Source: a bacterium (lineage in GTDB: Bacteria; Patescibacteriota; CPR2; UBA1875; JAJYID01). From it: DNA of 64,000 nucleotides. Shown piece after piece: positions 9,535 to 61,722 of this stretch; positions within the stretch are counted from its first letter, which is position 1; each line of letters starts with the position of its first letter. The DNA lies in NCBI GenBank assembly GCA_030647205.1, contig JAUSJO010000005.1:138523-202522 (forward strand). Direction: 5' to 3'. Under the pieces are notes generated by a model. That model was not told the origin of the DNA. It did not search any database and saw only the letters and a list, made by a program, of their open reading frames with translations. Position numbers and translations under genes: made by a program.

Positions 9535-9577
9535 CATAGAGTCGCTTTCGCGATTTTTTAAAATAATTAAACACATT

Positions 9578-16889: not shown

Positions 16890-17222
16890 GTCATTCCGAC
16901 CGATTTCCTGAAAGGACGAGCGGAGGAATCCCTTTCCCCGTATGTCATTCCCGCGGAGGCGGGAATCCAGACTTTAAAATACTCTATCTACTTTTTTAGA
17001 AAAAGTAGAATCAAAAATCCCCGACTAGCACTATGAAATAGATAAAACTAATAAAAATTTATCATTCAAAACAGCAACCACTCCGTTTAATACTGCTTTT
17101 GTCCTTCGGAACATTCTAAATTTTTAAGTTTTATCCACTATTTCTCCGTGATGTCGGGAGAGAACAAAAATCACGCCGAGAAGAACCTCATTCCGTCATC
17201 CTGAGGCACGAAGGATCTCTCC
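16890..17222 (+). repeat. Copy 4 of the mosaic intergenic repeat
   Basis: gtcattccgaccgatttcctgaaaggacgagcggaggaatccc, gtcattcccgcggaggcgggaatccag, ctacttttttagaaaaagtagaatcaaaaatcc, and a tail ttctccgtgatgtcggga...aaaaatcacgccg...gtcatcctgaggcacgaaggatct that is shared with copies 1 and 2. Confidence 0.85.
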
Positions 17223-17665: not shown

Positions 17666-18085
17666 ATGGCCAGAAAGTTAGCCGCTATTCTTGTTGCAGA
17701 TGTTTCGCCATGGCTTCAGACGAACAGTGCTGGAGGGGTTGAGGATAAGAAGGATTTTGCCGGTGAATTTGGCGTGGGAGAATACGTCGAGAAGTTCGGC
17801 CACTATGGTTTCTTTTGGCAGAACAAGGAATATGGGAAACATGTGCACCTAGTTATGTATTCCAAGACTGGCTTTACATCAAGGTTCTCAACGGATGTTA
17901 CTAGCGCTTTGATTGGTGATCTTCCTCATGCAACAGACAAGGTAATGGCACGGCTGGAACCTTGCTTCAAGAACGACGATGACGCAGTTCTTTTGGTGGA
18001 AGAAGGGGTACTTGAGCCTCTTCAGAAGCTATGCGAAAGAACCGGCGTTGACCTTGATTTGCTGGACGTTTCAGTCCACGCTTAA
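17666..18085 (+). CDS. Hypothetical protein (139 aa), GC-rich cassette ORF
   Basis: RBS aaggagg 7 nt upstream. GC is well above the neighbours. Followed by two hairpins at 18096-18152. Flanked by 17-bp direct repeats. Confidence 0.5.
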   Translation: MARKLAAILVADVSPWLQTNSAGGVEDKKDFAGEFGVGEYVEKFGHYGFFWQNKEYGKHVHLVMYSKTGFTSRFSTDVTSALIGDLPHATDKVMARLEPCFKNDDDAVLLVEEGVLEPLQKLCERTGVDLDLLDVSVHA

Positions 18086-18155
18086 TCAGAACAAAAGGGG
18101 GCTGGGCAAAGATGCCGCCCGGCCCTTTAGTGGACCTGAATTATCAGGTCCATAT

Positions 18156-19583: not shown

Positions 19584-20543
19584 ATGACGACTAACACACT
19601 TTTGCTTTTGGTTTTAGTGGCCATATTTTTTGGAGGCATTTTTGCAACAAAACTTTTCCTAAAGTTACCTGCAAAAAGATTCTATATTGGTATACCAGCA
19701 ATTATTATTGGACTTATTATAGGGGCACTTATATCCCTACCTCTCCAAAAACTTCCGGGCGACTTTGCCATCTGGGTTCCGGTGACCGTTAGCGCTGTAT
19801 GCGTTGTTGCTTCTCTGTATCTTTTCTTCGCGAAAACTCAAGGAATAGAGAAGTTTTTCACCGATATCTTCAAACTTATCAGGCTACCGAAGCTGGAAGA
19901 CGCAGGCAAAAGCAAAGAAAAAAATAAAATAATCCTAGATACCTCGGCCATAATTGACGGGAGATTTTTGGATGTGGTCAAGACGGGTTTCATGACGGGT
20001 AATTTCCTGCTCTTCAGATTTGTTTTGCATGAACTTCAAAACATTGCAGACTCCAGCGAAAACCTAAGAAGAGAAAAGGGGAAAAAGGGTCTTGAGGTTT
20101 TGGATAAGCTGAAGAAAGAAAAAGGAGTGAAACTTGAAGTTTCAACTGAGGATGTTCCTGATATTCAGGAAGTTGATGCCAAGCTTGTGAAGCTTGCGAA
20201 ACAGAAGGGGGCAATCATCTTAACAACAGACTATAACCTGAACAAGGTAGCAAAGATTCAAGGCGTCAGGGTTTTAAATATCAACGAACTTTCCGAGGCA
20301 ATAAAGCCCATTATTATCCCGGGTGAAAAGATGACTCTTAAAATTATTCAAACCGGAAAAGACAAGACTCAAGGGGTGGCTTATCTGACTGACGGCACGA
20401 TGATAGTGGTGGAGCGAGGCGGAAAGTCCATCGGGAAGGAACTGGATGTAGTGATCACCAGAATACTCCAGACGCCGGCGGGGAAAATGTATTTTGCAAA
20501 AATAAACGGTTCTGATAATGGTGAAAATAGAAGAAAACATTGA
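19584..20543 (+). CDS. YacL-like PIN/TRAM-domain membrane protein
   Basis: N-terminal TM helices, a PIN-like core (ILDTSAIIDGRF...ILTTDYNL) and a C-terminal TRAM-like beta domain. It sits immediately after radA, as yacL does in Bacillus. Confidence 0.7.
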   Translation: MTTNTLLLLVLVAIFFGGIFATKLFLKLPAKRFYIGIPAIIIGLIIGALISLPLQKLPGDFAIWVPVTVSAVCVVASLYLFFAKTQGIEKFFTDIFKLIRLPKLEDAGKSKEKNKIILDTSAIIDGRFLDVVKTGFMTGNFLLFRFVLHELQNIADSSENLRREKGKKGLEVLDKLKKEKGVKLEVSTEDVPDIQEVDAKLVKLAKQKGAIILTTDYNLNKVAKIQGVRVLNINELSEAIKPIIIPGEKMTLKIIQTGKDKTQGVAYLTDGTMIVVERGGKSIGKELDVVITRILQTPAGKMYFAKINGSDNGENRRKH

Positions 20544-21423
20544 TCTAAAAAAATATAATACCTATGGTGTCGGCGGAAGCGCTAAGTATTTTGTATTGGC
20601 AAAAAGTGGGCAGGATTTGGTTGATGCTTTTAACTTTGCGAAAGAGAAACATATAAATTATTTGGTTCTTGGTGGTGGCAGCAATGTTTTGATTTCTGAT
20701 GACGGATATGACGGTATTGTGATAGTGAATAAGGCAAATGAAATTGAAAGAAGCGGAAACAAAGTCAAAGTATCATCCGGAGCAAGTTTGGCGAGAATTA
20801 TAAAATTATTGAGTGAAGAGGGATTAGCTGGAGGAGAGTTTTTGGCTGGGATCCCAGGGACTCTAGGCGGGGCAATTCTTGGAAATGCCGGAGCATGGGG
20901 AAAGTCAATTGAAAGTATTATCGAGTCGGTAGAGTTCCTGAATGAAACAGGCGTGCAAGAAATTCAGAGAAGTGAAATGGTCTTTAGCTACCGTGATAGC
21001 AGCTTCAAGAAAATGGAAGGGATTATTTTGAGTGCGACCATGGTTTTTTCTGAAGGTTCTAGTGAAAAAGTTGCCTCAGCCGTAAAAGAAATTTTATCAA
21101 AGAGAAGCGGGAAGCATCCGGCGGGGAAGTCTTGCGGGAGCTTTTTTAAAAATATTGAAACGGCAGATTTGTCTCCTGAAATTTATAATAAAATGCGCGA
21201 TTGGGAAGTTGGTGGTAAAGTTGCGGCAGGAAAGTTAATCGAAGAAGCAGGAGCCAAGGGCATGAAAGTTGGTGGGGCAGAAGTTTCGCAGATGCATGCG
21301 AATTTTCTGGTAAATATCAGCGATGCTACAGCGGGTGATATCAAGGAATTGGCCAAGCAAGTAAAGCAAAAAGTTTATGAAAAGTTTAGTGTAGAGCTGG
21401 AGCCGGAAGTAAGGTATCTTTAG
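20518..21423 (+). CDS. murB: UDP-N-acetylenolpyruvoylglucosamine reductase
   Basis: FAD-binding N-terminus (YNTYGVGGSAKYF...LVLGGGSNVLISD) and the MurB C-terminal domain. Overlaps the upstream gene by 26 nt. Confidence 0.88.
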   Translation: MVKIEENIDLKKYNTYGVGGSAKYFVLAKSGQDLVDAFNFAKEKHINYLVLGGGSNVLISDDGYDGIVIVNKANEIERSGNKVKVSSGASLARIIKLLSEEGLAGGEFLAGIPGTLGGAILGNAGAWGKSIESIIESVEFLNETGVQEIQRSEMVFSYRDSSFKKMEGIILSATMVFSEGSSEKVASAVKEILSKRSGKHPAGKSCGSFFKNIETADLSPEIYNKMRDWEVGGKVAAGKLIEEAGAKGMKVGGAEVSQMHANFLVNISDATAGDIKELAKQVKQKVYEKFSVELEPEVRYL

Positions 21424-21560
21424 CTTCCTGTCATCCTTGCAAAGGCAATAATTTCGTTTCCAAATAGTTGTTTACTTGTGGACTAATTTATTCTAATATT
21501 GTCTGGCGTTAGCACCTTGTTATTTTCCCATGCTTTAGAAAACCTAAGGAGGTTTGAGCA

Positions 21561-21761
21561 ATGTCCGAAGATAAGCCTTTGATATTGGCGAGGAATTCCA
21601 AAGGAACAATAGACGTTCGATTACCTGCCGCTTTTTATAAAAAGCTCTGGTCGGACGTAGCAACTGTAGAGGCAGAAGAACTAGTCCATAAAGGACTGAA
21701 AAGGAGGCGTCTCTCAGTCGGGCCGGACGGAAGGTTGATCCCAATTAACGAGGTGGTATAG
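21561..21761 (+). CDS. AbrB/MazE-like swapped-hairpin mini-protein, paralog 1 (66 aa)
   Basis: GTIDVRLPAAFYKKLW...GPDGRLIPI resembles the MazE/AbrB N-terminal fold (AVRIPATLMQAL...VDGKLIIEPV). Strong RBS aaggagg. Confidence 0.5.
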   Translation: MSEDKPLILARNSKGTIDVRLPAAFYKKLWSDVATVEAEELVHKGLKRRRLSVGPDGRLIPINEVV

Positions 21762-21764
21762 AAA

Positions 21765-21950
21765 ATGCCAAAACCTATCAAACTCGCAAAGCATTCAAGA
21801 GGGACAGTAGATGTTCGATTACCAGATGCTTTTTACAAAAAAATCTGGCATGATGTGGCGATGATTCAAGGTGAGGAAAGGACGTTCAGAGGACAGCGAA
21901 AGAAACGCCTATTTGCTGGACCGAACGGAGAATTCGTGGAGGTGATCTAA
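21765..21950 (+). CDS. AbrB/MazE-like mini-protein, paralog 2 (61 aa)
   Basis: GTVDVRLPDAFYKKIW...GPNGEFVEV. Clear paralog of 21561-21761, separated by 3 nt. Confidence 0.5.
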   Translation: MPKPIKLAKHSRGTVDVRLPDAFYKKIWHDVAMIQGEERTFRGQRKKRLFAGPNGEFVEVI

Positions 21951-22145
21951 ATGTGTGTACCAAAACCAAAAGAGCAGGTTGCTCTCAGGTATACAGTCAC
22001 ATTTAACCCGGATATTCCGACTGAACTTATCCAGAAAATCTGGGCTATGGTTGATGCGGTCGAAGGTAGGGAACGCGAACTGTTAGGGCGTAGAATGAGG
22101 AGATTCGAAATACTCCCCGACGGGAATTTCCACTACCTCAACTAG
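21951..22145 (+). CDS. AbrB/MazE-like mini-protein, paralog 3 (64 aa)
   Basis: VALRYTVTFNPDIPTELIQKIW...LPDGNFHYL. A divergent third paralog that starts immediately after the stop of paralog 2. Confidence 0.45.
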   Translation: MCVPKPKEQVALRYTVTFNPDIPTELIQKIWAMVDAVEGRERELLGRRMRRFEILPDGNFHYLN

Positions 22146-22153
22146 TACAGATC

Positions 22154-22190
22154 GGGGCGGGTTTCTAAAAGAAACCCGCCCCATTTCATT
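22154..22190. terminator. Bidirectional intrinsic terminator between the convergent paralog triplet and the 22206-23264 gene
   Basis: ggggcgggtttc taaaa gaaacccgcccc flanked by A/T runs on both sides. Confidence 0.7.
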
Positions 22191-22205
22191 TATACAATTA
22201 TTATT

Positions 22206-23264
22206 TTATTCTTTAGCAGACCCAGGTTCGTTAGTTGGTTCGGACTCTGGAGGAGTAGTCTCGGCTGGTTCGGACGCTTGAGGCTCGGGTATAGTTGTTG
22301 GCTCAGACGTTGGATAAGCGGTGGCAGCCGGATCGGTCTGAGGAGCCGGTGGTGTTGGTTGAGCCGGCTGTACAGGTGGCTGTGTATTTTGGATTGGTTG
22401 TTCGGGTTGTTGTGTCTGTGGGGTCTGTTGAGCAGGTGGGGCTGGTTGTGTTGGTGGTTGAGCTGTCGGATTTGTCATGGATGAGACCATACTTTCTAAA
22501 CCTCCTATGCCTCCCACGGCAGCGCCCATACCACCTCCAAAGTTAAAAACTTTCCCAATAAAGCCTTGTTTAATCTCATTGATCATTGTTTCGAGATTCG
22601 TGCCTTGCGGTAAAGTTTCTGCTAACTTCCGGCCGTCCTTTAAGATTTTCCAGCCATAAATAATACTAAGTAAACGAATAATAAAGGTTATAAGGCTAGA
22701 GATAATCATAAGTATGCCTATCCAAAAAAACGCTTGCAGAGCAATCCCAGTTGTTTTTGCATCCTTTGTCCAGGAAGCGGGGTTAGCCGGATCGTAATTG
22801 ATGGTAACGGTCTGTCCTTCTGACAATCCACAGTTACCCGACGAAGAGGTAGAGGCTTGTTTTGTGTATTCCTTACCATCAACTGTATAACGTGCTGTCA
22901 ACGAACAAGAAGGGCTGTTGTTTGATGATCTTGTACGACTTGTAGTATTTGTATTCGTATTTGTGTTCATGCCAACTGAAACAACCGTTGCTTGAGTTGT
23001 TGCCGTCATTTTGTTTATGCCGGACATATTTCCAAAAATTGTTGGGATAAAAAGAAAAAGGACTCCGAAAAGGACGCCCGCTACCGTACCAAATATCCCA
23101 GGGCGCTTTTTGCCGCCAAATGGGTTATCTATACCAATAAAACCATCTGTGATGAGAACGGCGCCGATTGCTTGTTCTGCGGCTGCATATGTTGCCGGTT
23201 CTTGTTGTTTATATGGTTCAAGAAAACTTTCCGCATGCTTTTTTAGGGTAGAAAAAATCTTCAT
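22206..23264 (-). CDS. DUF3592-like membrane protein with a long Pro/Gln/Thr-rich C-terminal tail
   Basis: Two TM helices flank a beta-rich domain with C...Y.VDG.EY...V.I.YDPANP (DUF3592 signature). About 110 aa of PTQPAPPAQQTPQTQQPEQP low-complexity tail. RBS aaaaggag before the ATG at 23264. The track start at 23291 is an upstream in-frame ATG. Confidence 0.55.
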   Translation of the reverse strand: MKIFSTLKKHAESFLEPYKQQEPATYAAAEQAIGAVLITDGFIGIDNPFGGKKRPGIFGTVAGVLFGVLFLFIPTIFGNMSGINKMTATTQATVVSVGMNTNTNTNTTSRTRSSNNSPSCSLTARYTVDGKEYTKQASTSSSGNCGLSEGQTVTINYDPANPASWTKDAKTTGIALQAFFWIGILMIISSLITFIIRLLSIIYGWKILKDGRKLAETLPQGTNLETMINEIKQGFIGKVFNFGGGMGAAVGGIGGLESMVSSMTNPTAQPPTQPAPPAQQTPQTQQPEQPIQNTQPPVQPAQPTPPAPQTDPAATAYPTSEPTTIPEPQASEPAETTPPESEPTNEPGSAKE

Positions 23265-23768
23265 TATCACTCCTTTTTCATTTGTTATCACTTATGTTTG
23301 ATTATATCAAAATAAAAAATAAAAGACCATCGAGCTCTAAACTAAAAAACAAGAAGCCGAGCGATCGGCCCTTCTAGAAGAACCTCACACCCGACCTCAG
23401 CTTCTCATCTAGGATTCGGATGCCTAAATTTTGGGCGGCTTCCGAAATAGAGAAACTTCTCCTTTGCATCGAACAGTAAGAATCGGATAGGGCTCGAACA
23501 ACCATTGAGTTTGTTCGGGTAGCGGTGCTTAAGTTTGATCAACTGATGCTCAAGTTCGTCTGACTTCTTTTTGTTCGCCAGAGCTCCCTCTCGCACTTTG
23601 CTGAAACTCCCTCTCACACTTCACCAAAACTCACTCTAGGTGAAGTCCTAACCATGGCATCTTCATCTCGCTGCCTAGCCGGGAGAATAAATATTACGAA
23701 TATTCATAAGATCAATCCCTCCGACTAAAATCTATTATTTCAAAAATAATGGGTTTTGACAAACAAAA

Positions 23769-29893: not shown

Positions 29894-30148
29894 ATGGAAA
29901 AATCAAAGTTCATTAGTGTCAAAGAGGCAATGGATATAACTGGATATTCTCGTGTTCATGTTATCCGGCTTATTAATGATGGGAAAATACAAGCAGAGAA
30001 AGTGGGCCATACCTATATGGTTGATAGGAATTCACTCGGCGGGATTTACAAGGAAATGACAGAAGCGGATAAGAAAAAAGTTACAGAGGCAGTAGATAGG
30101 ACTTTCAAGGAATATGGAGACGTTCTAAAAAGGTTGGGTAAAGAATAA
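29894..30148 (+). CDS. Helix-turn-helix (excisionase/MerR-like) putative antitoxin
   Basis: ISVKEAMDITGYSRVHVIRLINDGKI HTH motif. The stop overlaps the start of the Doc gene (ATGA). Confidence 0.6.
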   Translation: MEKSKFISVKEAMDITGYSRVHVIRLINDGKIQAEKVGHTYMVDRNSLGGIYKEMTEADKKKVTEAVDRTFKEYGDVLKRLGKE

Positions 30149-30564
30149 TGAAGCCGGTAACTATCCAGGAAGTAGAGCTGATAGCTCATAAGCTGGCCAA
30201 GAAAATGATGACTTGGAATGAACCGATTCCTGACTTTGGCACTCGCTATCCGGGTATCCTAGAAAGCTGTCTGGCAAATGCCTTTCAAACATATGCCAAA
30301 AAGGATCTATACCCGACGCTAGAAGATAAAGCGGCGATTATTTTCTATCAAATGATTAAAAACCATCCCTTTGTGAATGGCAACAAGCGCATTGCCGTAA
30401 CGACACTTTTTACCTTTTTGGTAATTAACGATAAGTGGCTAGACGTGCAAAGAGAGGATCTTTATCGTGTGGCGGTGTGGGTCGCAGAAAGCCCGGCGCC
30501 ACTTAAGGATGGGACACTCTTGGCGATAAAAGATTTAGTTAAGCTTACCATGGAGGATGCTTGA
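30148..30564 (+). CDS. doc: Doc (death-on-curing) / Fic-fold toxin
   Basis: Signature HPFVNGNKR (Doc motif HxFx(D/N)GNKR). 138 aa. Confidence 0.75.
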   Translation: MKPVTIQEVELIAHKLAKKMMTWNEPIPDFGTRYPGILESCLANAFQTYAKKDLYPTLEDKAAIIFYQMIKNHPFVNGNKRIAVTTLFTFLVINDKWLDVQREDLYRVAVWVAESPAPLKDGTLLAIKDLVKLTMEDA

Positions 30565-31682
30565 AAAATCAGGAAAATATAGAAGAAGAAAGCAACTCTA
30601 AGGGCATTACAATTGGTGTTGGAGGAATACCATTCCCTTATGTTGACTACCTTAAATCCTATCAGAGAAATATAGACCAAATATATGTCTCATCGGGAAT
30701 AAAGGCTATTAGCGATTTAAATAGGAGTATTTTACCCAATATCTCTAGTCCGCTGTATAAAGGTCTAAGGGATTCTTTGAGCATACAAGAGTCCTTAATT
30801 CAGGGGCTTCAAAGGGTGGGAAAGGACCTCACTCTGTCTTCGAATTTAATGCAGGAAACGTCAAAGAATCTAATTGTGCCTTTAGATAGGGCAATCAGTA
30901 ATTTGGGTGGGTTGGCAGATGCACTGGAGGGTACGCCGTATTTACGAGGCGTAAAATTGACCAGCTCTCTTGTTGGTTCTTTGGAAGTTCAGCAAAGTCA
31001 AATATTACATGGATTAAAAACTATTTCTACTAAGAATGACTTGACCAAGTTTACAAATGTAATAAATCCGGGTATTTCTTTATTTTCTTCAGGCATTTCT
31101 AAGATAGTGGACTCGACTTCCGTTTTTGAAAATACACTTGTAAAGGAAGAAAAATCAGAGAGAGCAGAAAGACCAGACAGCAAGGAACAACAGAAGCTTG
31201 ATGAAATATTGAACGGGATAAACACTAAATTTGTCGAACGAAGAAAGGCCTGTTGGGAGACATTTTCTAAAAAGGGCAACGATTATATAGGTCAGTCCGC
31301 AAGTTCAATGAGGAGACTAATAGATGGGTTACTTAGAGAACTGGCCCCAAGGGAAGCAGTCCAACAAACGGAATTTTACAAAAAAAGAATTCAAAATTAT
31401 AATGAAAAAACACTAGAAGAAAAATCGAAGGTTACGAGGAAAGATCGTATTTATTACATATTGGATTATGATAAGAATGAGAGAGACGATATTTTTAAGA
31501 GGGTTATCAAAGTTATTGAATCGATAGTGGAAACACTAGATCACCTAAATGCATGGGATCACGAACCCATTGATGAAGATGGGTTTGTGTGCGGAGTATT
31601 CATAACAATAGAAGGTCAGCTGCTTGCCTTATTATCGATGCGGGATAGTATTGCTATAGAAAAAGGGCAGAATAAGATATAA
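30561..31682 (+). CDS. Hypothetical 373-aa protein translationally coupled to doc
   Basis: A 4-nt overlap with the doc stop. Alpha-helical, with no membrane segments. The C-terminal half has ERRKACWETF...MRRLIDGLLRELAP. Confidence 0.5.
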   Translation: MKNQENIEEESNSKGITIGVGGIPFPYVDYLKSYQRNIDQIYVSSGIKAISDLNRSILPNISSPLYKGLRDSLSIQESLIQGLQRVGKDLTLSSNLMQETSKNLIVPLDRAISNLGGLADALEGTPYLRGVKLTSSLVGSLEVQQSQILHGLKTISTKNDLTKFTNVINPGISLFSSGISKIVDSTSVFENTLVKEEKSERAERPDSKEQQKLDEILNGINTKFVERRKACWETFSKKGNDYIGQSASSMRRLIDGLLRELAPREAVQQTEFYKKRIQNYNEKTLEEKSKVTRKDRIYYILDYDKNERDDIFKRVIKVIESIVETLDHLNAWDHEPIDEDGFVCGVFITIEGQLLALLSMRDSIAIEKGQNKI

Positions 31683-33144: not shown

Positions 33145-33355
33145 TACTGATCTGTCATTCCGCTCGCCACTGCGCATAAGCCGGTCGAAATGACAAACTG
33201 TTGTATAATCTCAATTATGGAAAAGAAATGTAGTACTAGTTGCCCAGAGTAATGACTTGCAATATATAACCATTATGATATAATATAGTTATTCTAAAGC
33301 AGTGATGAGGGACTGCAAAGAGCGTTCTTTTTCAGTTTATCGACAGGAGGAGACT

Positions 33356-33964
33356 ATGATGGCTGACACAAAGGAACTTAAAGCAGAGGGAGACTACTGG
33401 TATGCCCTTCAGGGTTTAGGCGAAGAAGTGTACTCAATTCGTCATAGCGCTTATCATGCAGAGGTTGAAATTGGTACTGAGACGGAAGAGCACATTGATG
33501 ACATACGGGAGCTGAAACTCAAGCTTGTTAACGAGATAGTAGAAAAATTCAACGTTATATTCCCCGATCCAGGCGTGAAACGAGGAGAGGAAAAGCCTGC
33601 TCCTGAAGGAAAGGAACATTATTGGCACTGGTACGAAAGGGTGAAGGCACAGCTGAGCCGTGATGTTTTCAATGCGCTTGTTTGTTCTGGTTGCCCCTTT
33701 ACTAGCGGATATGAAGGCCATTATTTCCAAAGAGTTCCTTGCGGTATTTGCAGCGGCTATATCAACATTGATGTGGCCGAAGATGAGCCAAGGAGTAAAT
33801 GCCCAGCAGATAAGATGGGCGATGATGATAGTACATGGAGAGAGGTCGCTATATGCGAGAGGTCGGAAGAAACGCTGGATGACCAGATTCTAAGAGAGTT
33901 TGGTTTTGAGGAATATCTTGCTTTCAAGGACAAACAGGCCGAGATAGAAGCTAAGGCGGGGTAA
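33356..33964 (+). CDS. Cys-rich hypothetical protein, GC-rich orphan
   Basis: RBS aggagg 5 nt before the ATG at 33356. CSGCPF...CGICSGY...KCPADK cysteine cluster. Confidence 0.5.
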   Translation: MMADTKELKAEGDYWYALQGLGEEVYSIRHSAYHAEVEIGTETEEHIDDIRELKLKLVNEIVEKFNVIFPDPGVKRGEEKPAPEGKEHYWHWYERVKAQLSRDVFNALVCSGCPFTSGYEGHYFQRVPCGICSGYINIDVAEDEPRSKCPADKMGDDDSTWREVAICERSEETLDDQILREFGFEEYLAFKDKQAEIEAKAG

Positions 33965-34986: not shown

Positions 34987-35423
34987 AATACTTTGCATAC
35001 GGTTCGAATATGAATTTCAAACAAATGGATGACCGATGTCCAGACGCTAAATTCTTGAAAAAAGTATATCTAGAGGATTATCGATTCATTTATGACAAGG
35101 GATGCGACTGGTGGAGAACTTGCGGGAATATCACTGAGTCAAAGGGCGATATTGTTTGGGGAGGGCTTTTTGAAATTAGCGATAATGATTTAAAAAATCT
35201 TGATGAGTATGAACAATATGACAAAGGCCTTTATGATAGGAAGATATTTGAGTTAAAAGACGAAGAAGGGGAGCTGACTAAGGCAATTTCTTATTTTCGA
35301 GAAACTGAGGTTGAAGCTGTTCCATGCGAAGAATATCAAAATATCGTAGTGCAGGGCGCAAAAGACTGTGGTTTACCGGAAGAGTACATCTCATTTTTAG
35401 CTAGCGAAAAGGTAAAAGTATAG
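34983..35423 (+). CDS. Gamma-glutamylcyclotransferase (AIG2/GGCT-like) family protein
   Basis: N-terminal YFAYGSNM motif. ATG at 34983 overlaps the upstream stop. Confidence 0.7.
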   Translation: MKYFAYGSNMNFKQMDDRCPDAKFLKKVYLEDYRFIYDKGCDWWRTCGNITESKGDIVWGGLFEISDNDLKNLDEYEQYDKGLYDRKIFELKDEEGELTKAISYFRETEVEAVPCEEYQNIVVQGAKDCGLPEEYISFLASEKVKV

Positions 35424-35532
35424 TTTTAAAATTCGTGATAATCTCCGATGTTTTTTAAACTTGTGGAGACTACTATTGTGCATAGCTGTACCTAATACGT
35501 TCGCCAAGTCTTCTTTCAAGGGGGAGATCGAA

Positions 35533-35892
35533 ATGACGCAAACAAAAACACCCAGGGAGTATGTCGAAAACTTTGTGAAGGTATCTCTGGGTATATGTGC
35601 AAAAGACATGGGTTTCCATGTCCATACAGAGAGAGAAGTAGAAGAAATAATGGATACGCTGGACGCACATCCATTCTTGAAGCTTTTCGGGGACAGGGAA
35701 ATCGTCTTTCGGGAATATCCGGACTCATCTAGATACGCCAAGAGGTTTGCTAATGACATATTGGCAGTTCGTTTGGGTAGAGGGGACGAAAAGACCATTG
35801 TTATTTTAGAAGCCTCTGCGCTTTTAGGACGTTGGTCGAAAGAGCTGGTTTCCCAGTTGAAAAATAGTGTTAGAGCCAAAGAGAATGCTTAG
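35533..35892 (+). CDS. Hypothetical protein (119 aa)
   Basis: RBS aagggggag before the ATG at 35533. The track start at 35461 lacks an RBS. Confidence 0.45.
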   Translation: MTQTKTPREYVENFVKVSLGICAKDMGFHVHTEREVEEIMDTLDAHPFLKLFGDREIVFREYPDSSRYAKRFANDILAVRLGRGDEKTIVILEASALLGRWSKELVSQLKNSVRAKENA

Positions 35893-35903: not shown

Positions 35904-35948
35904 GCGGGAAACGGCCCATTAGGGCCGTTTCCCGCGAGGCTTTTTAAC
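35904..35948 (+). terminator. Intrinsic terminator
   Basis: gcgggaaacggccc atta gggccgtttcccgc followed by gaggcttttt. Confidence 0.7.
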
Positions 35949-37703: not shown

Positions 37704-37768
37704 AAAAGACTATTTCATGATATAGTTTATCCCACTACGAGGGAGAACTTTAAATATAACTATCAATC

Positions 37769-38311
37769 ATGCATTCATGGAAGGATGTGATCTTTTTGTC
37801 ATCTTCAGATGCTCAAGGCAGTTCGAGGAAAGTGTTTGATGCGAAGACAGAAGCACGTTTAGTGGAATTTCAGCAAAAGCTCGATGAACATGGCTTTGCT
37901 GCCAAGGTCCCGAGGGTCGAATATTCGAACTTCACCCAAACTCTCTTTTTCTACGGCAAAGAGGATAGGTCTAAGTTCCTATGCGGCTCGATTCAACTCG
38001 AAGAGTTTCTTGAGGGGAACGTTCACTTCTCGGATGAAGAGGAAACCGAGATCAGGAGTTGGTACGAAGTCAGTCTGTACAAGCTATTTCGTGAAGGTGC
38101 CAAAATAGAGAGTAGGTTGAGGGATCCCGACATAAGTAAAGACGAAAGAGCGGCCTTGACGTCAAAACACGACGAGATGAAAGCCGTGATATCCGAAGAG
38201 GGATTAAAAGCAAAAAGGATGGATACTCTCGGCTACTATTTCGGAGAAACCGATCCTGTCCGGAAAGAGCTGCTGTACGAAATCCATCACAGTATTCTCC
38301 AAGAATCCTAG
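37769..38311 (+). CDS. Hypothetical protein (180 aa), GC-rich
   Basis: An ORF with elevated GC. No recognised motifs. Confidence 0.45.
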   Translation: MHSWKDVIFLSSSDAQGSSRKVFDAKTEARLVEFQQKLDEHGFAAKVPRVEYSNFTQTLFFYGKEDRSKFLCGSIQLEEFLEGNVHFSDEEETEIRSWYEVSLYKLFREGAKIESRLRDPDISKDERAALTSKHDEMKAVISEEGLKAKRMDTLGYYFGETDPVRKELLYEIHHSILQES

Positions 38312-38328
38312 AGCGAAGGAGGGATGAC

Positions 38329-38703
38329 ATGAATGATCTGACCGAAGATGACTTTATCTGTCCAAAGTGCAAAACGCCTCTGCTCCAGAAAAATCTGGAA
38401 AAAAGCGGCATCCTAAGCCAAGGATACAACAAGTGCGGGAAATGCGGCAAAGGGCAGGAAGAAAAGTATGTAACTCGGTCCATTGACCTTGAAGTCATGA
38501 TTAGACACTGGCTGTCTAGGCTTCTACACGGAGATGATGAAAAAGAGATCTGTCATTTCTGGGGACATGTTAATGGGGAAATGGTCTCGAGCAACAACTT
38601 CAAAACCGAGTGTATCAAGAATGATGTCGAGATAATGGGTGAGGCCTTTGTGGTCGAAAAGATCTTTCTCAACATTATTCGGGATCTTCATGGAGGTGAC
38701 TGA
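38329..38703 (+). CDS. Zinc-ribbon hypothetical protein, GC-rich
   Basis: CPKCKT...CGKCGKG tetracysteine ribbon. RBS gaaggaggg. Confidence 0.5.
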   Translation: MNDLTEDDFICPKCKTPLLQKNLEKSGILSQGYNKCGKCGKGQEEKYVTRSIDLEVMIRHWLSRLLHGDDEKEICHFWGHVNGEMVSSNNFKTECIKNDVEIMGEAFVVEKIFLNIIRDLHGGD

Positions 38704-38715
38704 AGTAAATAAATG

Positions 38716-38770
38716 TGGGCGCGCCAAAAGGCGCGCCCATTTACTTTTTGTATACTTGTTTTGGTTTTTT
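38716..38770 (+). terminator. Intrinsic terminator followed by the TTTTGTATACTTGTTTTGGTTTTTT motif
   Basis: tgggcgcgcc aaaa ggcgcgccca then tttactttttgtatacttgttttggtttttt. Confidence 0.75.
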
Positions 38771-38924
38771 AGATCCATTAGAATTGATATGTAACAAATA
38801 TCAGGCAGTGGAAAACATTTATCTTGAGCTTATCTTTTTATAAGCGGGCCAGCCACTGCCAAAGTGGAAAGACACGGCGACCCCGTGTCTTTTAAATTAT
38901 TTTAATTTAGGTTAATATATTTTC

Positions 38925-40289
38925 ATGAAAAGAAATCGCTATTTTCTCTTTATTACACTGTTCTTCTTACCATCCGTGTCATTTGCAGGGGAGGGAAACA
39001 TAGTTATTCTTGGACTTTTTAGCTTAATTTATTTTTTTGGCTCATTTTTGGCTCTTGTCGCTCTTTTTGCGGCAGCTATATTTTGGCATGTAAAAAATAA
39101 AGACAAACTAAGGTTTTCTTCCTTTTTCAAGTCGAGGATGTTTCTGATTCTTAGCGGTCTTTTTGTTGGCGGCATATTTCTGGAATTTGTAGGGCTTGGT
39201 ATTTTGTATAAAATACTAGTCTCCATTTATGGGAAGGACGAGCCAAGTATGTTGGTGATTCTGGGTATTTGGGCAGTTATGAATCTGTTAGTCTATGGGA
39301 TTTTAATTGTTCCGACTTTATATTTCAAAAGAAAAGAACCGGGTACCAAGGGAGCGGTGATGAAGGTTATAGCTATACCTTTTGTTATTATTGCAGCCTG
39401 GATTTTGCTGGTTAGTGCATTTAACTTATATTATCTTTTCCTAGGTAAAGCGGTTAAAGAAAAAAATGTTACAGAGTCATGTGAAAATTTGCTAGCAGAC
39501 GCTCAAGAAAAAATTTCCGGGATGATGAGTGATAATTTGGACTCGCCACAGAGAGTTGTGATCTACGGAGACTCAAGAACTGGGATAGATACTCATAAGA
39601 AAATTATTTCTTTGATCATGAAAGCCCGTCCGGAAGCTGTCTTTAATGTTGGCGATATCGTCGAGGACGGAAGAAAGCCGGAGGAGTGGCCCGTTTTCAA
39701 TGAAATCACCAAAGATTTACGGGCAAATACAAACTTCTACCCGGTTTTGGGCAATCATGAGGAAGATTCACCTCTTTTCTATAATAACTTCGAGTTACCC
39801 GGAAATGAGCAGTGGTACTCGATCAACTTTAACAAAATACATTTTACCGTATTAAACAGCAACAAGGATCTAAGCGTGGGATCCGAGCAGTATAAGTGGC
39901 TGGAAAATGATCTTGCAAATGTCGGGAAAGATATAAGGTTCAAAGTTGTGACCTTTCATCACCCGCCGTTTTCATCAGGAAAACATGGCGGGGATGAGAT
40001 TAGCTCGGATCTACAGAAGAGTGTAGTTCCGCTTTTCGAAAAATATAAGGTGAGCGCAGTTTTTAACGGACATGACCATGACTATGAAAGATCCGAAGTG
40101 AACGGAATTTCTTATTTTGTTACTGGTGGCGGTGGCGCACCCCTATATCCGCCGGTCAGGAAAAATGAGGTTAGTAAGAAATTTGAAATGGCTTATCATT
40201 ATAGCGTTCTTGAGCGGACAAAAAATGCGCTTAAGGTCAGCGTATATGATGTTGATGATAAGCTGATAGACGAAGCCTCTATTAAGTAG
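38925..40289 (+). CDS. Membrane-anchored calcineurin-like metallophosphoesterase
   Basis: About 5 N-terminal TM helices, then GDSR, GDIVEDG, GNHE, and GHDHDYER phosphoesterase motifs. Confidence 0.8.
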   Translation: MKRNRYFLFITLFFLPSVSFAGEGNIVILGLFSLIYFFGSFLALVALFAAAIFWHVKNKDKLRFSSFFKSRMFLILSGLFVGGIFLEFVGLGILYKILVSIYGKDEPSMLVILGIWAVMNLLVYGILIVPTLYFKRKEPGTKGAVMKVIAIPFVIIAAWILLVSAFNLYYLFLGKAVKEKNVTESCENLLADAQEKISGMMSDNLDSPQRVVIYGDSRTGIDTHKKIISLIMKARPEAVFNVGDIVEDGRKPEEWPVFNEITKDLRANTNFYPVLGNHEEDSPLFYNNFELPGNEQWYSINFNKIHFTVLNSNKDLSVGSEQYKWLENDLANVGKDIRFKVVTFHHPPFSSGKHGGDEISSDLQKSVVPLFEKYKVSAVFNGHDHDYERSEVNGISYFVTGGGGAPLYPPVRKNEVSKKFEMAYHYSVLERTKNALKVSVYDVDDKLIDEASIK

Positions 40290-40353
40290 AAGGAAACCGT
40301 TTATTGTTGAAAGACGGACCAAAAAATGATATAGTTTCCTGGTATTTGGTGGT

Positions 40354-40442
40354 GCGCCGCGGTGGCTGAATTGGTATACGCGCGAGTCTTATTAACTAGT
40401 TCCCTAACAGGATGTGGAGTTCGACTATCCCCCGCGGCCCCA
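40354..40442 (+). other. Degenerate tRNA-like element (acceptor stem, T-loop and encoded CCA present; D and anticodon arms defective)
   Basis: gccgcgg (40356-62) pairs with ccgcggc (40432-38). U8-like tg follows. ttcgact T-loop at 40420-26. Discriminator c plus cca at 40439-42. The internal arms do not fold canonically. Confidence 0.25.
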
Positions 40443-40482
40443 GATATAATTAAAAACTCGAATTAGTGTAAGAGGGTATAAT

Positions 40483-40971: not shown

Positions 40972-41090
40972 GTATTCAAATTTTGATTGCTTGATGTTTC
41001 GTTTTGATATAAAATCGTGACTAGTAAGATAAAGGCCAACTGGAGAGGGTTGGTCTTTACTTTTGCACTTAAAATTCAACTGAAGAGAGG

Positions 41091-41840
41091 ATGGGTGAGG
41101 TGATGCAGATTTATCCGGGTGATCCGCTCAAAACGCTAGCATCAGTGAATGGGTATTATGAATGTCCGAAGGATGAGAGCGGGAGGCGTCTCGGTCCGCT
41201 TGTCGGATACGCAGGCACTTATAAGGATGAAAGTGGCATAAAGAGGCAAAAGGTCGGCGAGATATACTGTAACTTTGCAAAGGCAGATAACTATCCGCGG
41301 ATGCTTGATCAGTTCGCGCGCGACTTGCAACTTAACGGCTATATAGGAGGAACCATCCAAGCGTTTTGCGGTGCTCCCCTTGGCGGCTACTCCTTCTCGA
41401 CTGTTCTCGGGCTTGTTTACGATATTCCCGTGATAAAGGCCGAGAAAAAGGTGGTCGCACTGGCGACCCAAGGGTCTCGCGAGATGACGGATCTGGTTTT
41501 TGCTCGCGATCAAGTGGAGCCGGGAGTCAACTATGCGATCGTCGAGGATGTCTGTAACAACTTCTCTACAGTCGAGAAACTAGTTCCGTTGATATTTGAC
41601 GCGGGTGCATCTGTGAGCCAGATCATCTGTTTGCTTAATCGTTCAGCATTGGTGGATGACTACTACCAGATGAAAAATATGAACTTAAGTATTGCAGTGA
41701 ATAATCTTGTTCGTATAAAGATGCGGGACTTCCGTCAGGACGATCCTTATGTGCGGGAAGACATCGAGGTTGGTAATGTGGTCTGGAAACCGAAGGACGA
41801 TTGGGGCCGCCTCGAGAAAGCTATGGCGGAAGTGGCGTAA
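41091..41840 (+). CDS. Phosphoribosyltransferase-fold protein, GC-rich
   Basis: PRT-type nucleotide-binding motif YAIVEDVCNNFSTVEK (hydrophobic stretch, acidic pair, then small residues). The start is ambiguous between 41091 and 41103. Confidence 0.4.
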   Translation: MGEVMQIYPGDPLKTLASVNGYYECPKDESGRRLGPLVGYAGTYKDESGIKRQKVGEIYCNFAKADNYPRMLDQFARDLQLNGYIGGTIQAFCGAPLGGYSFSTVLGLVYDIPVIKAEKKVVALATQGSREMTDLVFARDQVEPGVNYAIVEDVCNNFSTVEKLVPLIFDAGASVSQIICLLNRSALVDDYYQMKNMNLSIAVNNLVRIKMRDFRQDDPYVREDIEVGNVVWKPKDDWGRLEKAMAEVA

Positions 41841-42010
41841 AACCCTCAAAATGAACAGTTAAAAATCAGGGCTCGGGATCCGAAAGGAACCCGAGCCCTT
41901 AAACATTGAAAGTAGAATTGACAGTAAGAGCGTTTTGAGGTAAAATCCATTCACCGAAAGTTCACTACTGAAAGCTACTCGGAGTACTCTAAGGAGGTGA
42001 AGTCTTTAAA

Positions 42011-42358
42011 ATGTGCGGTGAAACCCAGAAAATCAGTATGCCCGGTGCAGCCAGAAAGGTGACTCTTAGTAACATCAAGGAGTCACAACTTAAGGACCCC
42101 CGTTTTGGGATCTATAAAGTTGAGGCCGGTAGGCACGAAGGTGACTATGTCGTAGCCGACTCTGATGGTAATATGGTCGTCCTGGATCGCAAGAAGTATA
42201 ACAAGGAAAGACCGTTTGCCGTTGTGAAGGAAAACGGGTTCTATGTTCTCGAGGACCAGGAAAGCGGCAAAGTTTGGCTCACTCAAAGCGAGTGGGAGAT
42301 GCTAAACATGACGTCAAGAGGCAGTAAACGCAAGCGGCAGGCAGCCGTGCACAACTAA
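42011..42358 (+). CDS. Hypothetical protein (115 aa), GC-rich
   Basis: RBS aaggaggtg. Followed by the terminator at 42385-42420. Confidence 0.45.
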   Translation: MCGETQKISMPGAARKVTLSNIKESQLKDPRFGIYKVEAGRHEGDYVVADSDGNMVVLDRKKYNKERPFAVVKENGFYVLEDQESGKVWLTQSEWEMLNMTSRGSKRKRQAAVHN

Positions 42359-42384
42359 AAGTCTCATATTTTCGTTCTTTTGAA

Positions 42385-42420
42385 GCGCCCCGAGCACTTA
42401 TCTACCGGGGCGCTTTTTCA
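42385..42420 (+). terminator. Intrinsic terminator
   Basis: gcgccccg agcacttatctac cggggcgc tttttc. Confidence 0.7.
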
Positions 42421-42530: not shown

Positions 42531-43031
42531 ATGATTATTGCAATTATTTTGGCGGCAGTTGCTCTCTTTGTTATTCCCCAGGTTTTTCGGGAAAAAGAAA
42601 AAGATGATGGACTGAATGTCGCCGCCGGCATTTTTGCTGCCGCTGTGATTGTAGTCATCGGTGCGTTGGTAGGTGACGTGGTTAAAGATCACTTGTCAAG
42701 TGAAGTGGTTGTCAGCGAAATAAACATTGCTTCTGACCCAGGTAACCCAAACAACTTTATTCTCGACAAGTATTATGTTCCGGGCAAGCGCGGTAGTGGT
42801 AGAACTTATTACACATTGCTGACTGCTGAGGGTGATGGCTCCTACAAGCCAACATCTTTTGACTCTTCCCATTTCGCTGTCATTCCGGAAGATAGGCAGG
42901 ACGCAGTACTTCTTGTAAAAACACGGAGTTGTACGGCTGGTCCTTGGGCGAGTTTCATTTCCACCTGTTTCCATGATGAAAAACCAGATTTCGAGTTGCA
43001 TCAGCCAGCCAGTTCTTCAGGAGAGGCATGA
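42531..43031 (+). CDS. Hypothetical membrane protein
   Basis: Two N-terminal TM helices. A consensus promoter (ttgaca, 17 nt, tattat) lies at 42455-42483. Terminator at 43063-43089. Confidence 0.5.
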   Translation: MIIAIILAAVALFVIPQVFREKEKDDGLNVAAGIFAAAVIVVIGALVGDVVKDHLSSEVVVSEINIASDPGNPNNFILDKYYVPGKRGSGRTYYTLLTAEGDGSYKPTSFDSSHFAVIPEDRQDAVLLVKTRSCTAGPWASFISTCFHDEKPDFELHQPASSSGEA

Positions 43032-46012: not shown

Positions 46013-46310
46013 GTCATTCTGGTTTGGTCAGAATCGTATTTGTCATCCTGATGTACGAAGGATCTCATCCTCTCATTCCCACTTTCATCTGTCATTCCCG
46101 CGGAGACGGGAACCCAGTTTTGAATTATTTCCACTTTTTTAGAAAAAGTGGAGCAAAAATCGCGGCTTAGACGGTCTCTCAAAGTATCGTCTGGTTCGCT
46201 CTCTCATCTTTAAAAAAATTAACTCGCTTCTCTCAAACAAAATTCTTTTTAAAGGTTCGTTCACTCCCAGACTTTCTTTTCGAGCCGATAGCCGCAAGAG
46301 ATGCCCTAGA
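46013..46310 (+). repeat. Copy 5 of the mosaic intergenic repeat
   Basis: gtcattctggtttggtcagaat, gtcatcctgatgtacgaaggatct, gtcattcccgcggagacgggaacccag, ccacttttttagaaaaagtggagcaaaaatcgcggcttagacgg, and a module ending ttttcgagccgatagccgcaagag as in copy 3. Confidence 0.85.
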
Positions 46311-46751: not shown

Positions 46752-47342
46752 ATGCGTTTTCCGGGTTTTAACCTGTACAAGGAAATGGGTGTCCCACAGG
46801 GGGCATCGAATGATGAGATTAAGAGGACATACAGACAGCTCGTAAAGAAGTACCATCCCGATGTAAACAATACGGTTGACGGCGAGGAACGTTTCAAGAG
46901 GATATCGACTGCCTATGAGATACTTGGCAACTCAGAGAAAAGATCTGCGTATGATTCTTTTTTGATAATGAGTGGGGGAGTTTCTCCAAATTACTCACCG
47001 CGGACAACACAATCACGACCGATGCCATTTAGTTTTAATCTCGAGGAGCTAGAGGAGCTCCTTGAGAAAATGTGTCGTGATAAGTTTGGGGATAACTGGC
47101 GGGAGGAGCTTAAAAAACAAGGAGTAGACCCGGAAGATATACCTCGGGAGCCTCGCACTTCTAGTAGCAGGACATCCACTGATGAACCTACTGCTAACAG
47201 AACTGCTTATCGTAGCGGATTTCCTCGTAGTAAAGCTACCCCCAGCAAGGTCAAGTACTATAGGTATCCGAGGGTTAGTATGCCTCCAGGTTTGTACCTT
47301 ATAGCTGTGGCCCTAATCCTCCTGTACCTCTATCAGTCGTAA
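46752..47342 (+). CDS. J-domain (DnaJ-like) protein with a C-terminal membrane anchor
   Basis: J domain NLYKEMGV...YRQLVKKYHPDVN (HPD motif), a Pro/Ser-rich linker, and a terminal hydrophobic helix. Confidence 0.7.
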   Translation: MRFPGFNLYKEMGVPQGASNDEIKRTYRQLVKKYHPDVNNTVDGEERFKRISTAYEILGNSEKRSAYDSFLIMSGGVSPNYSPRTTQSRPMPFSFNLEELEELLEKMCRDKFGDNWREELKKQGVDPEDIPREPRTSSSRTSTDEPTANRTAYRSGFPRSKATPSKVKYYRYPRVSMPPGLYLIAVALILLYLYQS

Positions 47343-59652: not shown

Positions 59653-59673
59653 TTAGATCCAACTTATAAAATA

Positions 59674-59705
59674 AAGAACCCACAGAAATGTGGGTTCTTT
59701 TGTGC
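59674..59705 (+). terminator. Intrinsic terminator immediately after rpsJ
   Basis: aagaacccaca gaaa tgtgggttctt ttgtg. Confidence 0.7.
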
Positions 59706-59726
59706 TTAGGAAATACAAGAAAACCA

Positions 59727-59755
59727 TTGACAAAATATATAACTTATGATAGAAT
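59727..59755 (+). promoter_or_regulatory. Consensus promoter of the inserted 59816 gene
   Basis: ttgaca, 17 nt, tagaat, then the leader hairpin ggttatc aaaag ggtaacc and RBS aggagg. Confidence 0.55.
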
Positions 59756-59815
59756 ATCACATTCGGTTATCAAAAGGGTAACCGTGTTCGTCAAAATCGA
59801 CAATAGGAGGTTGCT

Positions 59816-60508: not shown

Positions 60509-60532
60509 TTCGGGGATATCCCCCAAGAAGAG

Positions 60533-60563
60533 GGCCGGCGCAAATGCGCGCTGGCCCTTTTTT
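60533..60563 (+). terminator. Intrinsic terminator
   Basis: gggccggcgc aaat gcgcgctggccc tttttt. Confidence 0.75.
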
Positions 60564-60657
60564 CTATGGTAATTTTTTAATAATAAATTGATTGACATGG
60601 TATTTTTTATGCTATACATTGAGGGAAACAAAAACATAAGCGTAAAAAGGAGTAAAA

Positions 60658-61137: not shown

Positions 61138-61271
61138 AAAATTATTTGACCGGTAATCTTGGTTGTGTTAGATTGAGATTACAAACAATTTGACAAGGGG
61201 GAGGGGTGATCCTTCCTTTTTGTGTGTACTTTTTACAAATTTCCCAATTTTCTTAGAGAAAGGCGGACAAA

Positions 61272-61628: not shown

Positions 61629-61642
61629 TCTTTCCTAGTAAT

Positions 61643-61680
61643 GCCCCGGGACTAACGTTGTCCCGGGGCACAACATTTTA
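61643..61680 (+). terminator. Hairpin terminator
   Basis: gccccgggac taacgtt gtcccggggc followed by an A/T-rich stretch. Confidence 0.6.
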
Positions 61681-61693
61681 GCTTAAAAATTTG

Positions 61694-61722
61694 TTGACTT
61701 TAGCTCACATTTAGCTTATAAT
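61694..61722 (+). promoter_or_regulatory. Consensus promoter that re-initiates the rplC-rplD-rplW-rplB operon
   Basis: ttgact, 17 nt, tataat. Confidence 0.6.

Follow-up and report, generated by a model that had tools for sequence, protein, structure and literature searches.

Are small GC-rich genes scattered between the core operons of a streamlined bacterial chromosome recent imports, or is their composition a lasting property of the genes themselves? The question is raised by two adjacent genes at positions 37769-38770 of a 64-kb stretch (the window) of contig JAUSJO010000005.1 in GenBank assembly GCA_030647205.1, and by eight further open reading frames (ORFs) of the window that an initial annotation had singled out, together with these two, as GC-rich orphans, each with a private promoter and a strong terminator. 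They were interpreted there as mini-cassettes, comparable to phage morons, acquired from a donor of higher GC content, possibly a host cell. In our analysis this observation is partly confirmed and the interpretation partly supported. On balance, we consider the ten ORFs to be a heterogeneous set of genuine genes that are restricted to the lineage or to the CPR (candidate phyla radiation), and the high GC content at third codon positions (GC3) of five of them is probably a stable, gene-specific property and not the scar of a fresh import. Such a set is ordinary for a CPR genome, and current views of the genome dynamics of the Patescibacteria stand.

The window has a GC content of 41.6% and nearly all its genes, including the ten ORFs with their associated signals, lie on the plus strand. 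It carries the core genes dnaE, rplS, nusA, clpB, recG, tig, clpP, rpoB, rpoC, rpsL, rpsG, fusA, tuf, rpsJ and rplC-D-W, and the genome encodes ComEA. Since the closest relatives of a DUF2207 protein encoded beside the focal genes all derive from Patescibacteria/CPR metagenome-assembled genomes (MAGs) and share no more than 50% identity with it, the window represents the chromosome of a CPR lineage that has been sampled poorly and where genes normally go unannotated. Roughly half of all CPR genes lack a known function, and all ten ORFs are annotated as hypothetical in the GenBank MAG (locus tags Q7S53_03830 onward). Contigs of relatives were recovered via exact-protein look-ups and include a close sister, SRR22388055 (contigs L002, L093, L094 and L095), at about 88-95% nucleotide identity to the window, a relative at 85-88% identity (L001), a Hainich groundwater relative (L086) at about 80% average nucleotide identity (ANI), and the deeper relatives L096 and L097 (GCA_021787535.1). 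Rfam and ARAGORN scans of the window gave no matches.

The two-gene unit at 37769-38770

The focal genes form a predicted two-gene operon encoding an acidic alpha/beta protein followed by a putative zinc-ribbon protein. The first, ORF A (37769-38311), encodes 180 amino acids from an ATG codon, with a GC content of 45.7% and a GC3 of 52%, and shows a ratio of nonsynonymous to synonymous substitution rates (dN/dS) of 0.235 against the sister. Other possible starts are GTG 37787 and TTG 37796, the latter (171 amino acids) being used in the Logan gene call and in the sister orthologue; an exact look-up of the 180-residue form gave no match, and the same applied to a dCMP deaminase encoded upstream of ORF 41091. 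ORF B (38329-38703), which also has a GC3 of 52%, starts 17 nt past ORF A behind the Shine-Dalgarno motif AAGGAGGG and encodes 124 amino acids, comprising a putative N-terminal CPKC...CGKC zinc ribbon and a helical C-terminal part. It shares 94% amino acid identity with the sister protein at a dN/dS of 0.139; its zinc-ribbon matches were only sub-threshold and its AlphaFold2 model was unusable, with a predicted local distance difference test score (pLDDT) of 42.

A candidate promoter for the unit, the extended -10-like sequence TGaTATAGT at 37718-37726, was found by reading the sequence; it has no -35 match and was missed by a scan for two hexamers. The unit probably ends at an intrinsic terminator at 38715-38740, with a GC stem of 10-11 bp, a 4-nt loop, the tail TTTACTTTTT and a free energy (dG) of -26, and this stem is identical in sister contig L093. 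A second hairpin with a T-tract (38867-38893) marks the left edge of a 1.4-kb segment missing in the sister, which carries a metallophosphoesterase gene (38925-40289).

For ORF A, a search of 5.8 billion clusters returned only the protein itself and its sister orthologue, and an exhaustive HMMER search of 1.84 billion (1.84e9) representatives yielded 12 remote homologues at E<=1e-3. The family shares the motifs LDxxGF...PRAEWSNF, WYxxSxYRLG and LAYxYxETDPER..LLY, and its named members come from a Saccharibacteria MAG and "bacterium CG2_30_37_16". Judged by these matches, ORF A belongs to a rare family restricted to the CPR. An AlphaFold2 model built on the homologue alignment (pLDDT 87.4; predicted template modelling score, pTM, 0.80) shows a fold of one helix, a three-stranded sheet and six helices, for which Foldseek found no structural analogue, the best matches being at E=0.29 in the PDB and E=0.046 in BFVD. 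As a new small protein family found only in the CPR, and one whose fold is predicted with confidence, it merits an experimental structure and the determination of its binding partner.

The relative of ORF A in L096 shares 49% amino acid identity and lies at the matching position in the order RecG-ComEA-ASCH-GGACT-X-metallophosphoesterase. Its GC3 is 62.5%, against 31-47% in the neighbouring genes, and a GC hairpin follows downstream. No homologue of ORF B adjoins it; the pairing of ORF A with ORF B is therefore not obligatory. A more remote relative of 335 amino acids (24% identity), on the unrelated contig L099 (262-7269), adjoins genes for MazE-like, ThiF (E1-like) and JAB-domain proteins, a neighbourhood that recalls ubiquitin-like conjugation or defence loci, by analogy and as a hint only. 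We take ORF A and ORF B to encode small cytosolic proteins, most likely with a binding or regulatory role, that would belong to a repertoire specific to the CPR and be inherited within the clade.

Composition, signals and the origin of high GC3

All ten ORFs (named below by their start positions, except ORF A and ORF B) were confirmed at the coordinates listed initially. They are real genes, as follows from dN/dS values of 0.09-0.24, in the frames given, for the seven with orthologues and from Shine-Dalgarno motifs upstream of the starts; ORFs 33356 and 35533 had no orthologue for the dN/dS comparison. Their GC contents of 42.9-53.7% (mean 47.3%) exceed those of the other genes (mean 41.7%, standard deviation 2.9), and intergenic DNA in the window is at 36.2%. 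The contrast of 46-54% against 38-40% drawn initially was overstated, with 61272, 35533 and ORF B at 43-44%, and a group-wise test (Mann-Whitney p=6e-5) is circular because the ORFs had been picked by eye for their GC content. When a GC3 z-score was computed for each gene, given its own amino acid sequence and the codon usage of the window, five ORFs stood out: 59816 (+8.2), 41091 (+5.4), 42011 (+4.2), ORF A from its TTG start at 37796 (+3.9) and ORF B (+3.0). The remaining five, at z<=2.1, fall inside the background (standard deviation 1.64, maximum 3.8) and within the normal range of the genome; their extra GC resides at codon positions 1 and 2 and therefore reflects amino acid composition. 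Unlisted genes with the same features occur at 21561-22145, 42531-43031 and 46752-47342.

All ten proteins are hydrophilic and look soluble, and exactly four, 8889, 33356, ORF B and 61272, carry two CxxC pairs; all Pfam and NCBIfam zinc-ribbon matches of these four were sub-threshold. The absence of a recognisable function was borne out for nine ORFs, which gave no significant Pfam, NCBIfam, PHROG or PADLOC match (in PHROG, nothing at E<0.008), but not for 41091, a homologue of phosphoribosyltransferases (PRTases). Readings of the ORFs as defence or toxin-antitoxin systems were dropped, PADLOC having given no matches.

The signals were less uniform than described. Eight of the ten ORFs and five of the 49 other genes have a hairpin with dG <= -20 kcal/mol no more than 120 nt from the stop codon (Fisher p=2e-5), an enrichment that persists when the comparison is limited to genes with a gap of at least 40 nt (p=1.6e-4); ORF 33356 has none and ORF A relies on the hairpin of ORF B. 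A GC stem with a U-tract, as in intrinsic terminators, is predicted at 18131-18152, 35904-35935, 38715-38740, 42382-42416 and 60526-60563. At 9393-9420, 41868-41899 and 61642-61670 such a tract is weak or missing. Terminator stems are conserved in relatives with compensatory changes. Sigma-70-like sites scoring at least 9/12 are predicted upstream of 33356, 42011, 59816 and 61272, and also upstream of ORF 8521, where the site is perhaps shared with 8889. No promoter-like site was found for 35533, 17666 or 41091. Both a promoter and a terminator of their own are predicted for 42011, 59816 and 61272. In the case of 33356 the prediction is limited to a promoter, in that of 35533, 17666 and 41091 to a terminator, and ORF A (37796) and ORF B form a bicistronic unit with only the extended -10 upstream.

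The evidence that carries our interpretation is the persistence of high GC3 in relatives. Besides the L096 homologue of ORF A, the L097 orthologue of 41091 has a GC3 of 52% (0.518) against 37-45% in the surrounding core genes, and the L086 orthologue of 17666 one of 45% against 29-39%. These homologues at matching positions retain high GC3 despite saturated synonymous sites, which argues against a recent import of high-GC DNA as its source. Over such distances an imported composition should have decayed towards the AT-rich background, at 36% in intergenic DNA, and some force therefore keeps GC3 high, for which mRNA or codon selection and recombination-linked GC bias are candidates. A weak association of strong hairpins with GC3-richer genes in unrelated Patescibacteria loci, described below, suggests that the pattern extends beyond the window. 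Relaxed selection, with drift towards mutational equilibrium, was discarded as an explanation, intergenic GC being only 36%, and ordinary translational selection was discarded because the tuf, rpoB and ribosomal protein genes prefer AT-ending codons; highly expressed genes of this genome have a GC3 of 0.31 (tuf) and 0.33 (rpoB). The GC3-rich ORFs have a near-zero GC3 skew, compared with about +0.15 in typical plus-strand genes, and tend to show low synonymous divergence (dS), a combination compatible with selection, recombination-linked bias or recent exchange among close relatives.

We propose that the ORFs occupy the ends of, or gaps between, conserved core operons of the streamlined chromosome, each gap acting as a slot for one to three short genes that would be transcribed either through read-through of the upstream operon or from a promoter of their own, sigma-70-like or of the extended -10 type, and closed by a GC-rich intrinsic terminator. 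One occupant, 41091, would be an ordinary salvage enzyme; 17666, ORF A with its putative zinc-ribbon partner ORF B, and 42011 would be inherited vertically within the clade; and 33356, 35533, 59816 and 61272 would be gained and lost between close relatives. Turnover most likely occurs when the flanking core genes undergo homologous recombination, with a pool of genes within the Patescibacteria as the source. Horizontal transfer into Patescibacteria is mostly from other Patescibacteria, and 61.6% of the genes in their horizontally acquired regions have no assigned function (PMC12455944).

The import reading, in which the ORFs are recent, unameliorated, moron-like units of promoter, ORF and terminator supplied by a donor richer in GC, for instance the host cell, appears unlikely. 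It would account for the GC3 z-scores of +3 to +8 in five ORFs, their flat GC3 skew, a dS that is low relative to many neighbours, the presence or absence of 33356, 35533, 41091, 59816 and 61272 among sisters, and the predicted signals, complete for 42011, 59816 and 61272 and reduced to a promoter for 33356. Some of the genes do behave as replaceable units, and some units have the proposed architecture as far as predicted. Against this stand the normal codon usage of the other five ORFs, the retention of high GC3 in the homologues of ORF A, 41091 and 17666, and the AT-rich accessory genes held by other slots. A high-GC or host donor is unsupported, and no phage, plasmid or non-CPR source emerged: deep homology searches, made for ORF A and 41091, gave closest named homologues from the CPR, including Saccharibacteria and CG2_30_37_16 for ORF A, and not from a donor lineage. 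ORF 41091 belongs to a Patescibacteria-wide family, and 17666 is conserved at 91% amino acid identity in the Hainich relative. Neither 50,697 phage records nor 72,556 plasmid records yielded a tblastn match to the nine unknown proteins, concatenated; IMG/VR scans with 59816, ORF B and 42011 gave no matches, nor did scans of Joint Genome Institute (JGI) metagenome contigs with the ORF A family and 59816; all these scans detect only close or moderately close relatives. No hairpin sequence is common to the ORFs, and no mobility genes, transposase, integrase or repeat boundaries were seen. For ORF A, ORF B, 41091 and 17666 the import reading is already weakened.

We give a similarly low probability to the proposal that the slots between operons are recombination hot spots in which GC-biased gene conversion has raised GC3. 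A link between recombination and GC3 in bacteria is reportedly treated in one published study. Divergence from the sister is indeed mosaic, with dS ranging from 0.15 to 2.9 and identity shifting abruptly inside the DUF2207 gene, and high identity at the 8889 and 37796-38703 units reaches into the flanking intergenic DNA; the tendency of GC3-rich genes to low dS points the same way. However, the intergenic flanks are AT-rich (33-41% GC), contrary to what a regional conversion bias would predict, and rpoB and ribosomal protein genes also have low dS yet low GC3.

Selection at synonymous sites, with GC-ending codons kept for mRNA stability or structure or for tuning of translation, is less probable still. 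Consistent with it are the GC3-richness maintained across deep homologues amid AT-rich neighbours, the reduced dS, and a weak general link in Patescibacteria between a strong hairpin and a GC3-richer gene. This link was observed in 63 unrelated loci, drawn from 80 Patescibacteria loci found with the DUF2207 neighbour (<=50% identity, no synteny), where the mean GC3 z is +0.85 for genes followed by a hairpin of dG <= -20 and -0.09 for the others, with z>3 in 16% and 6% of them, respectively (within-locus permutation p=0.0015). The AT-ending codon preference of tuf and rpoB shows that any such selection is not of the ordinary translational kind. Finally, long ORFs on both strands of GC-rich stretches, such as 38070-38498 and 35397-35879 on the minus strand, might suggest chance open frames in GC-richer, non-genic DNA, an idea contradicted by the constrained frames, the Shine-Dalgarno sequences, the conserved homologues and the confident model of ORF A, already refuted for the seven ORFs with orthologues, and almost certainly wrong.

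Several points weigh against our preferred reading, that of lineage-restricted slot genes whose high GC3 is maintained. The promoters and terminators are sequence predictions, the force behind the sustained GC3 covers two candidates (selection or recombination-linked bias), and we infer recombination as the means of turnover from the mosaic divergence. For the eight ORFs other than ORF A and 41091, the absence of a donor rests on look-ups in clusters at 90% identity and on close-range scans. Moreover, ORF 59816, with its z of +8.2, patchy distribution and flat GC3 skew, could be a recent import from a GC-richer genome and is the best remaining candidate for one. In this genome, raised GC by itself is a poor guide to whether a gene is foreign. 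That genes capped by terminators maintain a GC3 bias is a modest result worth a pangenome test.

Slots between core operons and their occupants

When the window is compared with its relatives, the core operons form a conserved backbone, and insertions and replacements fall at their boundaries; turnover of genes at these fixed gaps is real. The close sister lacks 33356 and 35533 and has a replacement for 41091, and in L001 59816 is absent and 61272 replaced; 8889, 17666, ORF A, ORF B and 42011 are conserved, so that presence and absence divide the flagged set. The matching gaps of relatives hold other small ORFs without detectable similarity, some of them GC-rich. Other occupants are AT-rich (30-34% GC), and an accessory gene is therefore not necessarily GC-rich. 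Genes outside the initial list vary as well, including a 2-hydroxyacid dehydrogenase gene (11664), the metallophosphoesterase gene at 38925-40289 and a 2.8-kb segment (20518-23291), carrying murB, three tiny paralogues and a DUF3592 protein gene, which is missing at that position in the Hainich relative. At the edges of these indels no direct repeats, transposase or integrase were seen. Separating stable clade genes from strain-swapped ones narrows the search for factors of the symbiotic lifestyle.

It is conceivable, though doubtful, that such genes form a distinct class in the Patescibacteria, terminator-capped, replaced between relatives by unrelated occupants and with GC-rich synonymous sites that are actively maintained against an AT-biased background, through mRNA selection or recombination-linked bias, of which the ORF A family would be one module. 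Slot-resident genes, at one to three per gap and present also in a split S10 operon, could constitute a fast-evolving repertoire for host interaction or defence.

The split S10 ribosomal operon lies at 59653-61796 and is interrupted between rpsJ and rplC. A terminator hairpin belonging to rpsJ is present in the window and in L001, L002 and L004, but the stem differs in sequence in L001 and L004, which are more distant. A promoter-like site for rplC (11/12) is found at 61694-61722. In the gap, a conserved gene for a DoxX-like membrane protein (60658-61137) is flanked on either side by variable small ORFs, of 230 and 118 amino acids in the window and of 92, 120 and 100 in L001, and L004 has a minus-strand ORF. 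The 230-residue product is that of ORF 59816-60508 (GC 53.7%, GC3 63.6%), which forms a predicted unit at 59727-60563 with a promoter-like site at 59727-59755 (11/12, with TG) and a 16-bp terminator at 60526-60563. In the protein, a basic linker connects two halves rich in beta structure; the gene is present in L002/L003 and absent from L001 and L004. The full frame shares 93% amino acid identity with the sister and its two halves show dN/dS of 0.18 and 0.11; both halves being constrained, the GenBank call of 141 amino acids is probably truncated. ORF 61272-61628 (118 amino acids, two CxxC pairs; GC3 z +0.4, normal) is preceded by a promoter-like site at 61146-61174 (9/12, with TG) and followed by the hairpin at 61642-61670, with its weak U-tract, the whole spanning 61146-61670. 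It is 93% identical to its L002 orthologue, and the 100-residue ORF of L001 is a relative at 28% identity.

The remaining ORFs differ in their settings. ORF 8889-9347 (152 amino acids, two CxxC pairs) is followed by the 12-bp hairpin at 9393-9420, which lacks a U-tract on the plus strand; it is 96% identical to the sister protein with a dN/dS of 0.128, has a normal GC3 z of +1.4 and is possibly co-transcribed with the 92-residue ORF 8521-8799. In L086 the same gap holds an unrelated 127-residue ORF of 53% GC. ORF 17666-18085 (139 amino acids; z +2.1) precedes tandem hairpins at 18096-18128 and 18131-18152 and a T-tract, the stem showing compensatory changes; in the Hainich relative it is more conserved than several of its neighbours, with a dN/dS of 0.095. 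ORF 33356-33964 (202 amino acids, two CxxC pairs; z +1.6) stands behind a promoter-like site at 33257-33284 (10/12, with TG). ORF 42011-42358 encodes a basic protein of 115 amino acids between a promoter-like site at 41918-41946 (11/12) and the terminator with T-tract at 42382-42416; it shares 94% identity with the sister protein (dN/dS 0.092) and has weak similarity (E=0.01) to a 99-residue ORF in the matching gap of L097.

ORF 35533-35892 (119 amino acids, with longer TTG starts possible) is the last gene after ComEA-ASCH-GGACT and ends at a 14-bp GC terminator (35904-35935); the sister has an unrelated ORF of 106 amino acids in its place. The start of the longest ORF for the adjacent DUF2207 gene (GTG 35898) overlaps this terminator. 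Because the sister product has 567 amino acids, the true start probably lies about 100 nt downstream.

ORF 41091-41840 (249 amino acids, with its hairpin at 41868-41899) is not the orphan it was taken for. It has 836 homologous clusters at E<=1e-3, of which all the named ones are from Patescibacteria; many carry the JGI name orotate phosphoribosyltransferase (OPRT) and some carry PF00156. Among PDB entries the OPRT structure 2wns matches it best (E=7.5e-5), its match to TIGR01367 (E=7.5e-4) lies below the cutoff, and it contains VEDVCNNFST, an acidic-hydrophobic motif resembling the phosphoribosyl pyrophosphate (PRPP) loop. By homology it is a PyrE-like type I PRTase of a Patescibacteria-wide family. 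In L097 and L098 an orthologue (71% amino acid identity) lies directly after pyrF and before tig, as in the window, and L097 retains the terminator stem GGGCTCGGGA; in the close sister the slot holds a canonical 204-residue PF00156 enzyme instead. Orotate is a candidate substrate, its support being the adjacency to pyrF in these relatives and the JGI names. ORF 41091 should be re-annotated as PyrE-like, and the GenBank call at 59816 be treated as probably truncated.

In the leader of 41091 (40972-41090), a promoter-like TTGATT...TGATATAAA is followed, just ahead of the Shine-Dalgarno sequence, by a T-tracted hairpin (about 41024-41068). This hairpin may simply serve the upstream dCMP deaminase gene as its terminator, or it may act as an attenuator for the pyrE-like gene. 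Further upstream, behind a promoter-like site at 40307-40335, lies a tRNA-like sequence (about 40352-40443; GCCGCGG..TGGCTGAATTGGTA..GGAGTTCGACT..CCGCGGC-C-CCA) that is conserved in sister contig L093. It received no ARAGORN call and matched no Rfam model even at E<=1; it may represent a small RNA, or else a tRNA that is degenerate or unusual.

Three further features of the window were observed. The tiny paralogues at 21561-22145 are three tandem ORFs of 61-66 amino acids with 31-50% mutual identity, closed by a 13-bp GC terminator. An islet at 29894-31682 encodes an HTH_17 protein, a Doc/Fic toxin and a protein with a pPIWI-associated-nuclease-like domain; the close sister lacks it and carries instead genes for a DUF6941 protein and an AT-rich 248-residue membrane protein. 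A dispersed intergenic repeat of about 70-190 nt, arranged around the palindrome TCCACTTTTTTAGAAAAAGTGGA followed by GTAAAAATCGCGACTTAGACGGC, occurs always upstream of a plus-strand gene, at 338-406, 2191-2369, 10403-10580, 46119-46300 and 16987-17009, and in L086 at 3703-3875 and 9290-9550; it has no Rfam match.

Comparison with known systems

Three systems and one enzyme family invite comparison. Type I PRTases such as PyrE resemble 41091 in sequence, in the PRPP-loop-like motif and in the adjacency to pyrF seen in relatives, but they are of about 180-215 amino acids, against about 250 for 41091, and most members of its family fall below the Pfam PF00156 threshold.

Integron cassettes share with the window units a small, promoter-poor ORF followed by an inverted repeat, perfect or imperfect, and a replaceable content. 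In contrast to such cassettes, the units are scattered and their hairpins are mutually unrelated and mostly U-tracted like terminators; no integrase was found among about 40 ORFs scanned, a search that was not exhaustive. Phage morons are matched by 42011, 59816 and 61272 in the predicted combination of own promoter-like site, single ORF and own terminator, and in deviating composition. However, the neighbours in the window are dnaE, rplS, recG, tig, rpoB and rpsJ and not a prophage, there are no PHROG, phage-genome or IMG/VR relatives, and several of the ORFs lack a promoter of their own. The moron analogy holds for the predicted architecture of some units only.

ORFans are usually reported to be AT-richer than the core genome, and several of the window ORFs differ from them in being GC3-richer than the core and in retaining this composition in deep homologues. 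In other respects they resemble the ORFans and flexible islets of streamlined genomes, described for Patescibacteria (PMC12455944): they are short, functionally uncharacterised and restricted in distribution, they lie between core genes and are present or absent between close relatives, and their gene pool is mostly intra-phylum. Such islets are multi-gene islands, whereas the occupants of the window lie in single-gene slots.

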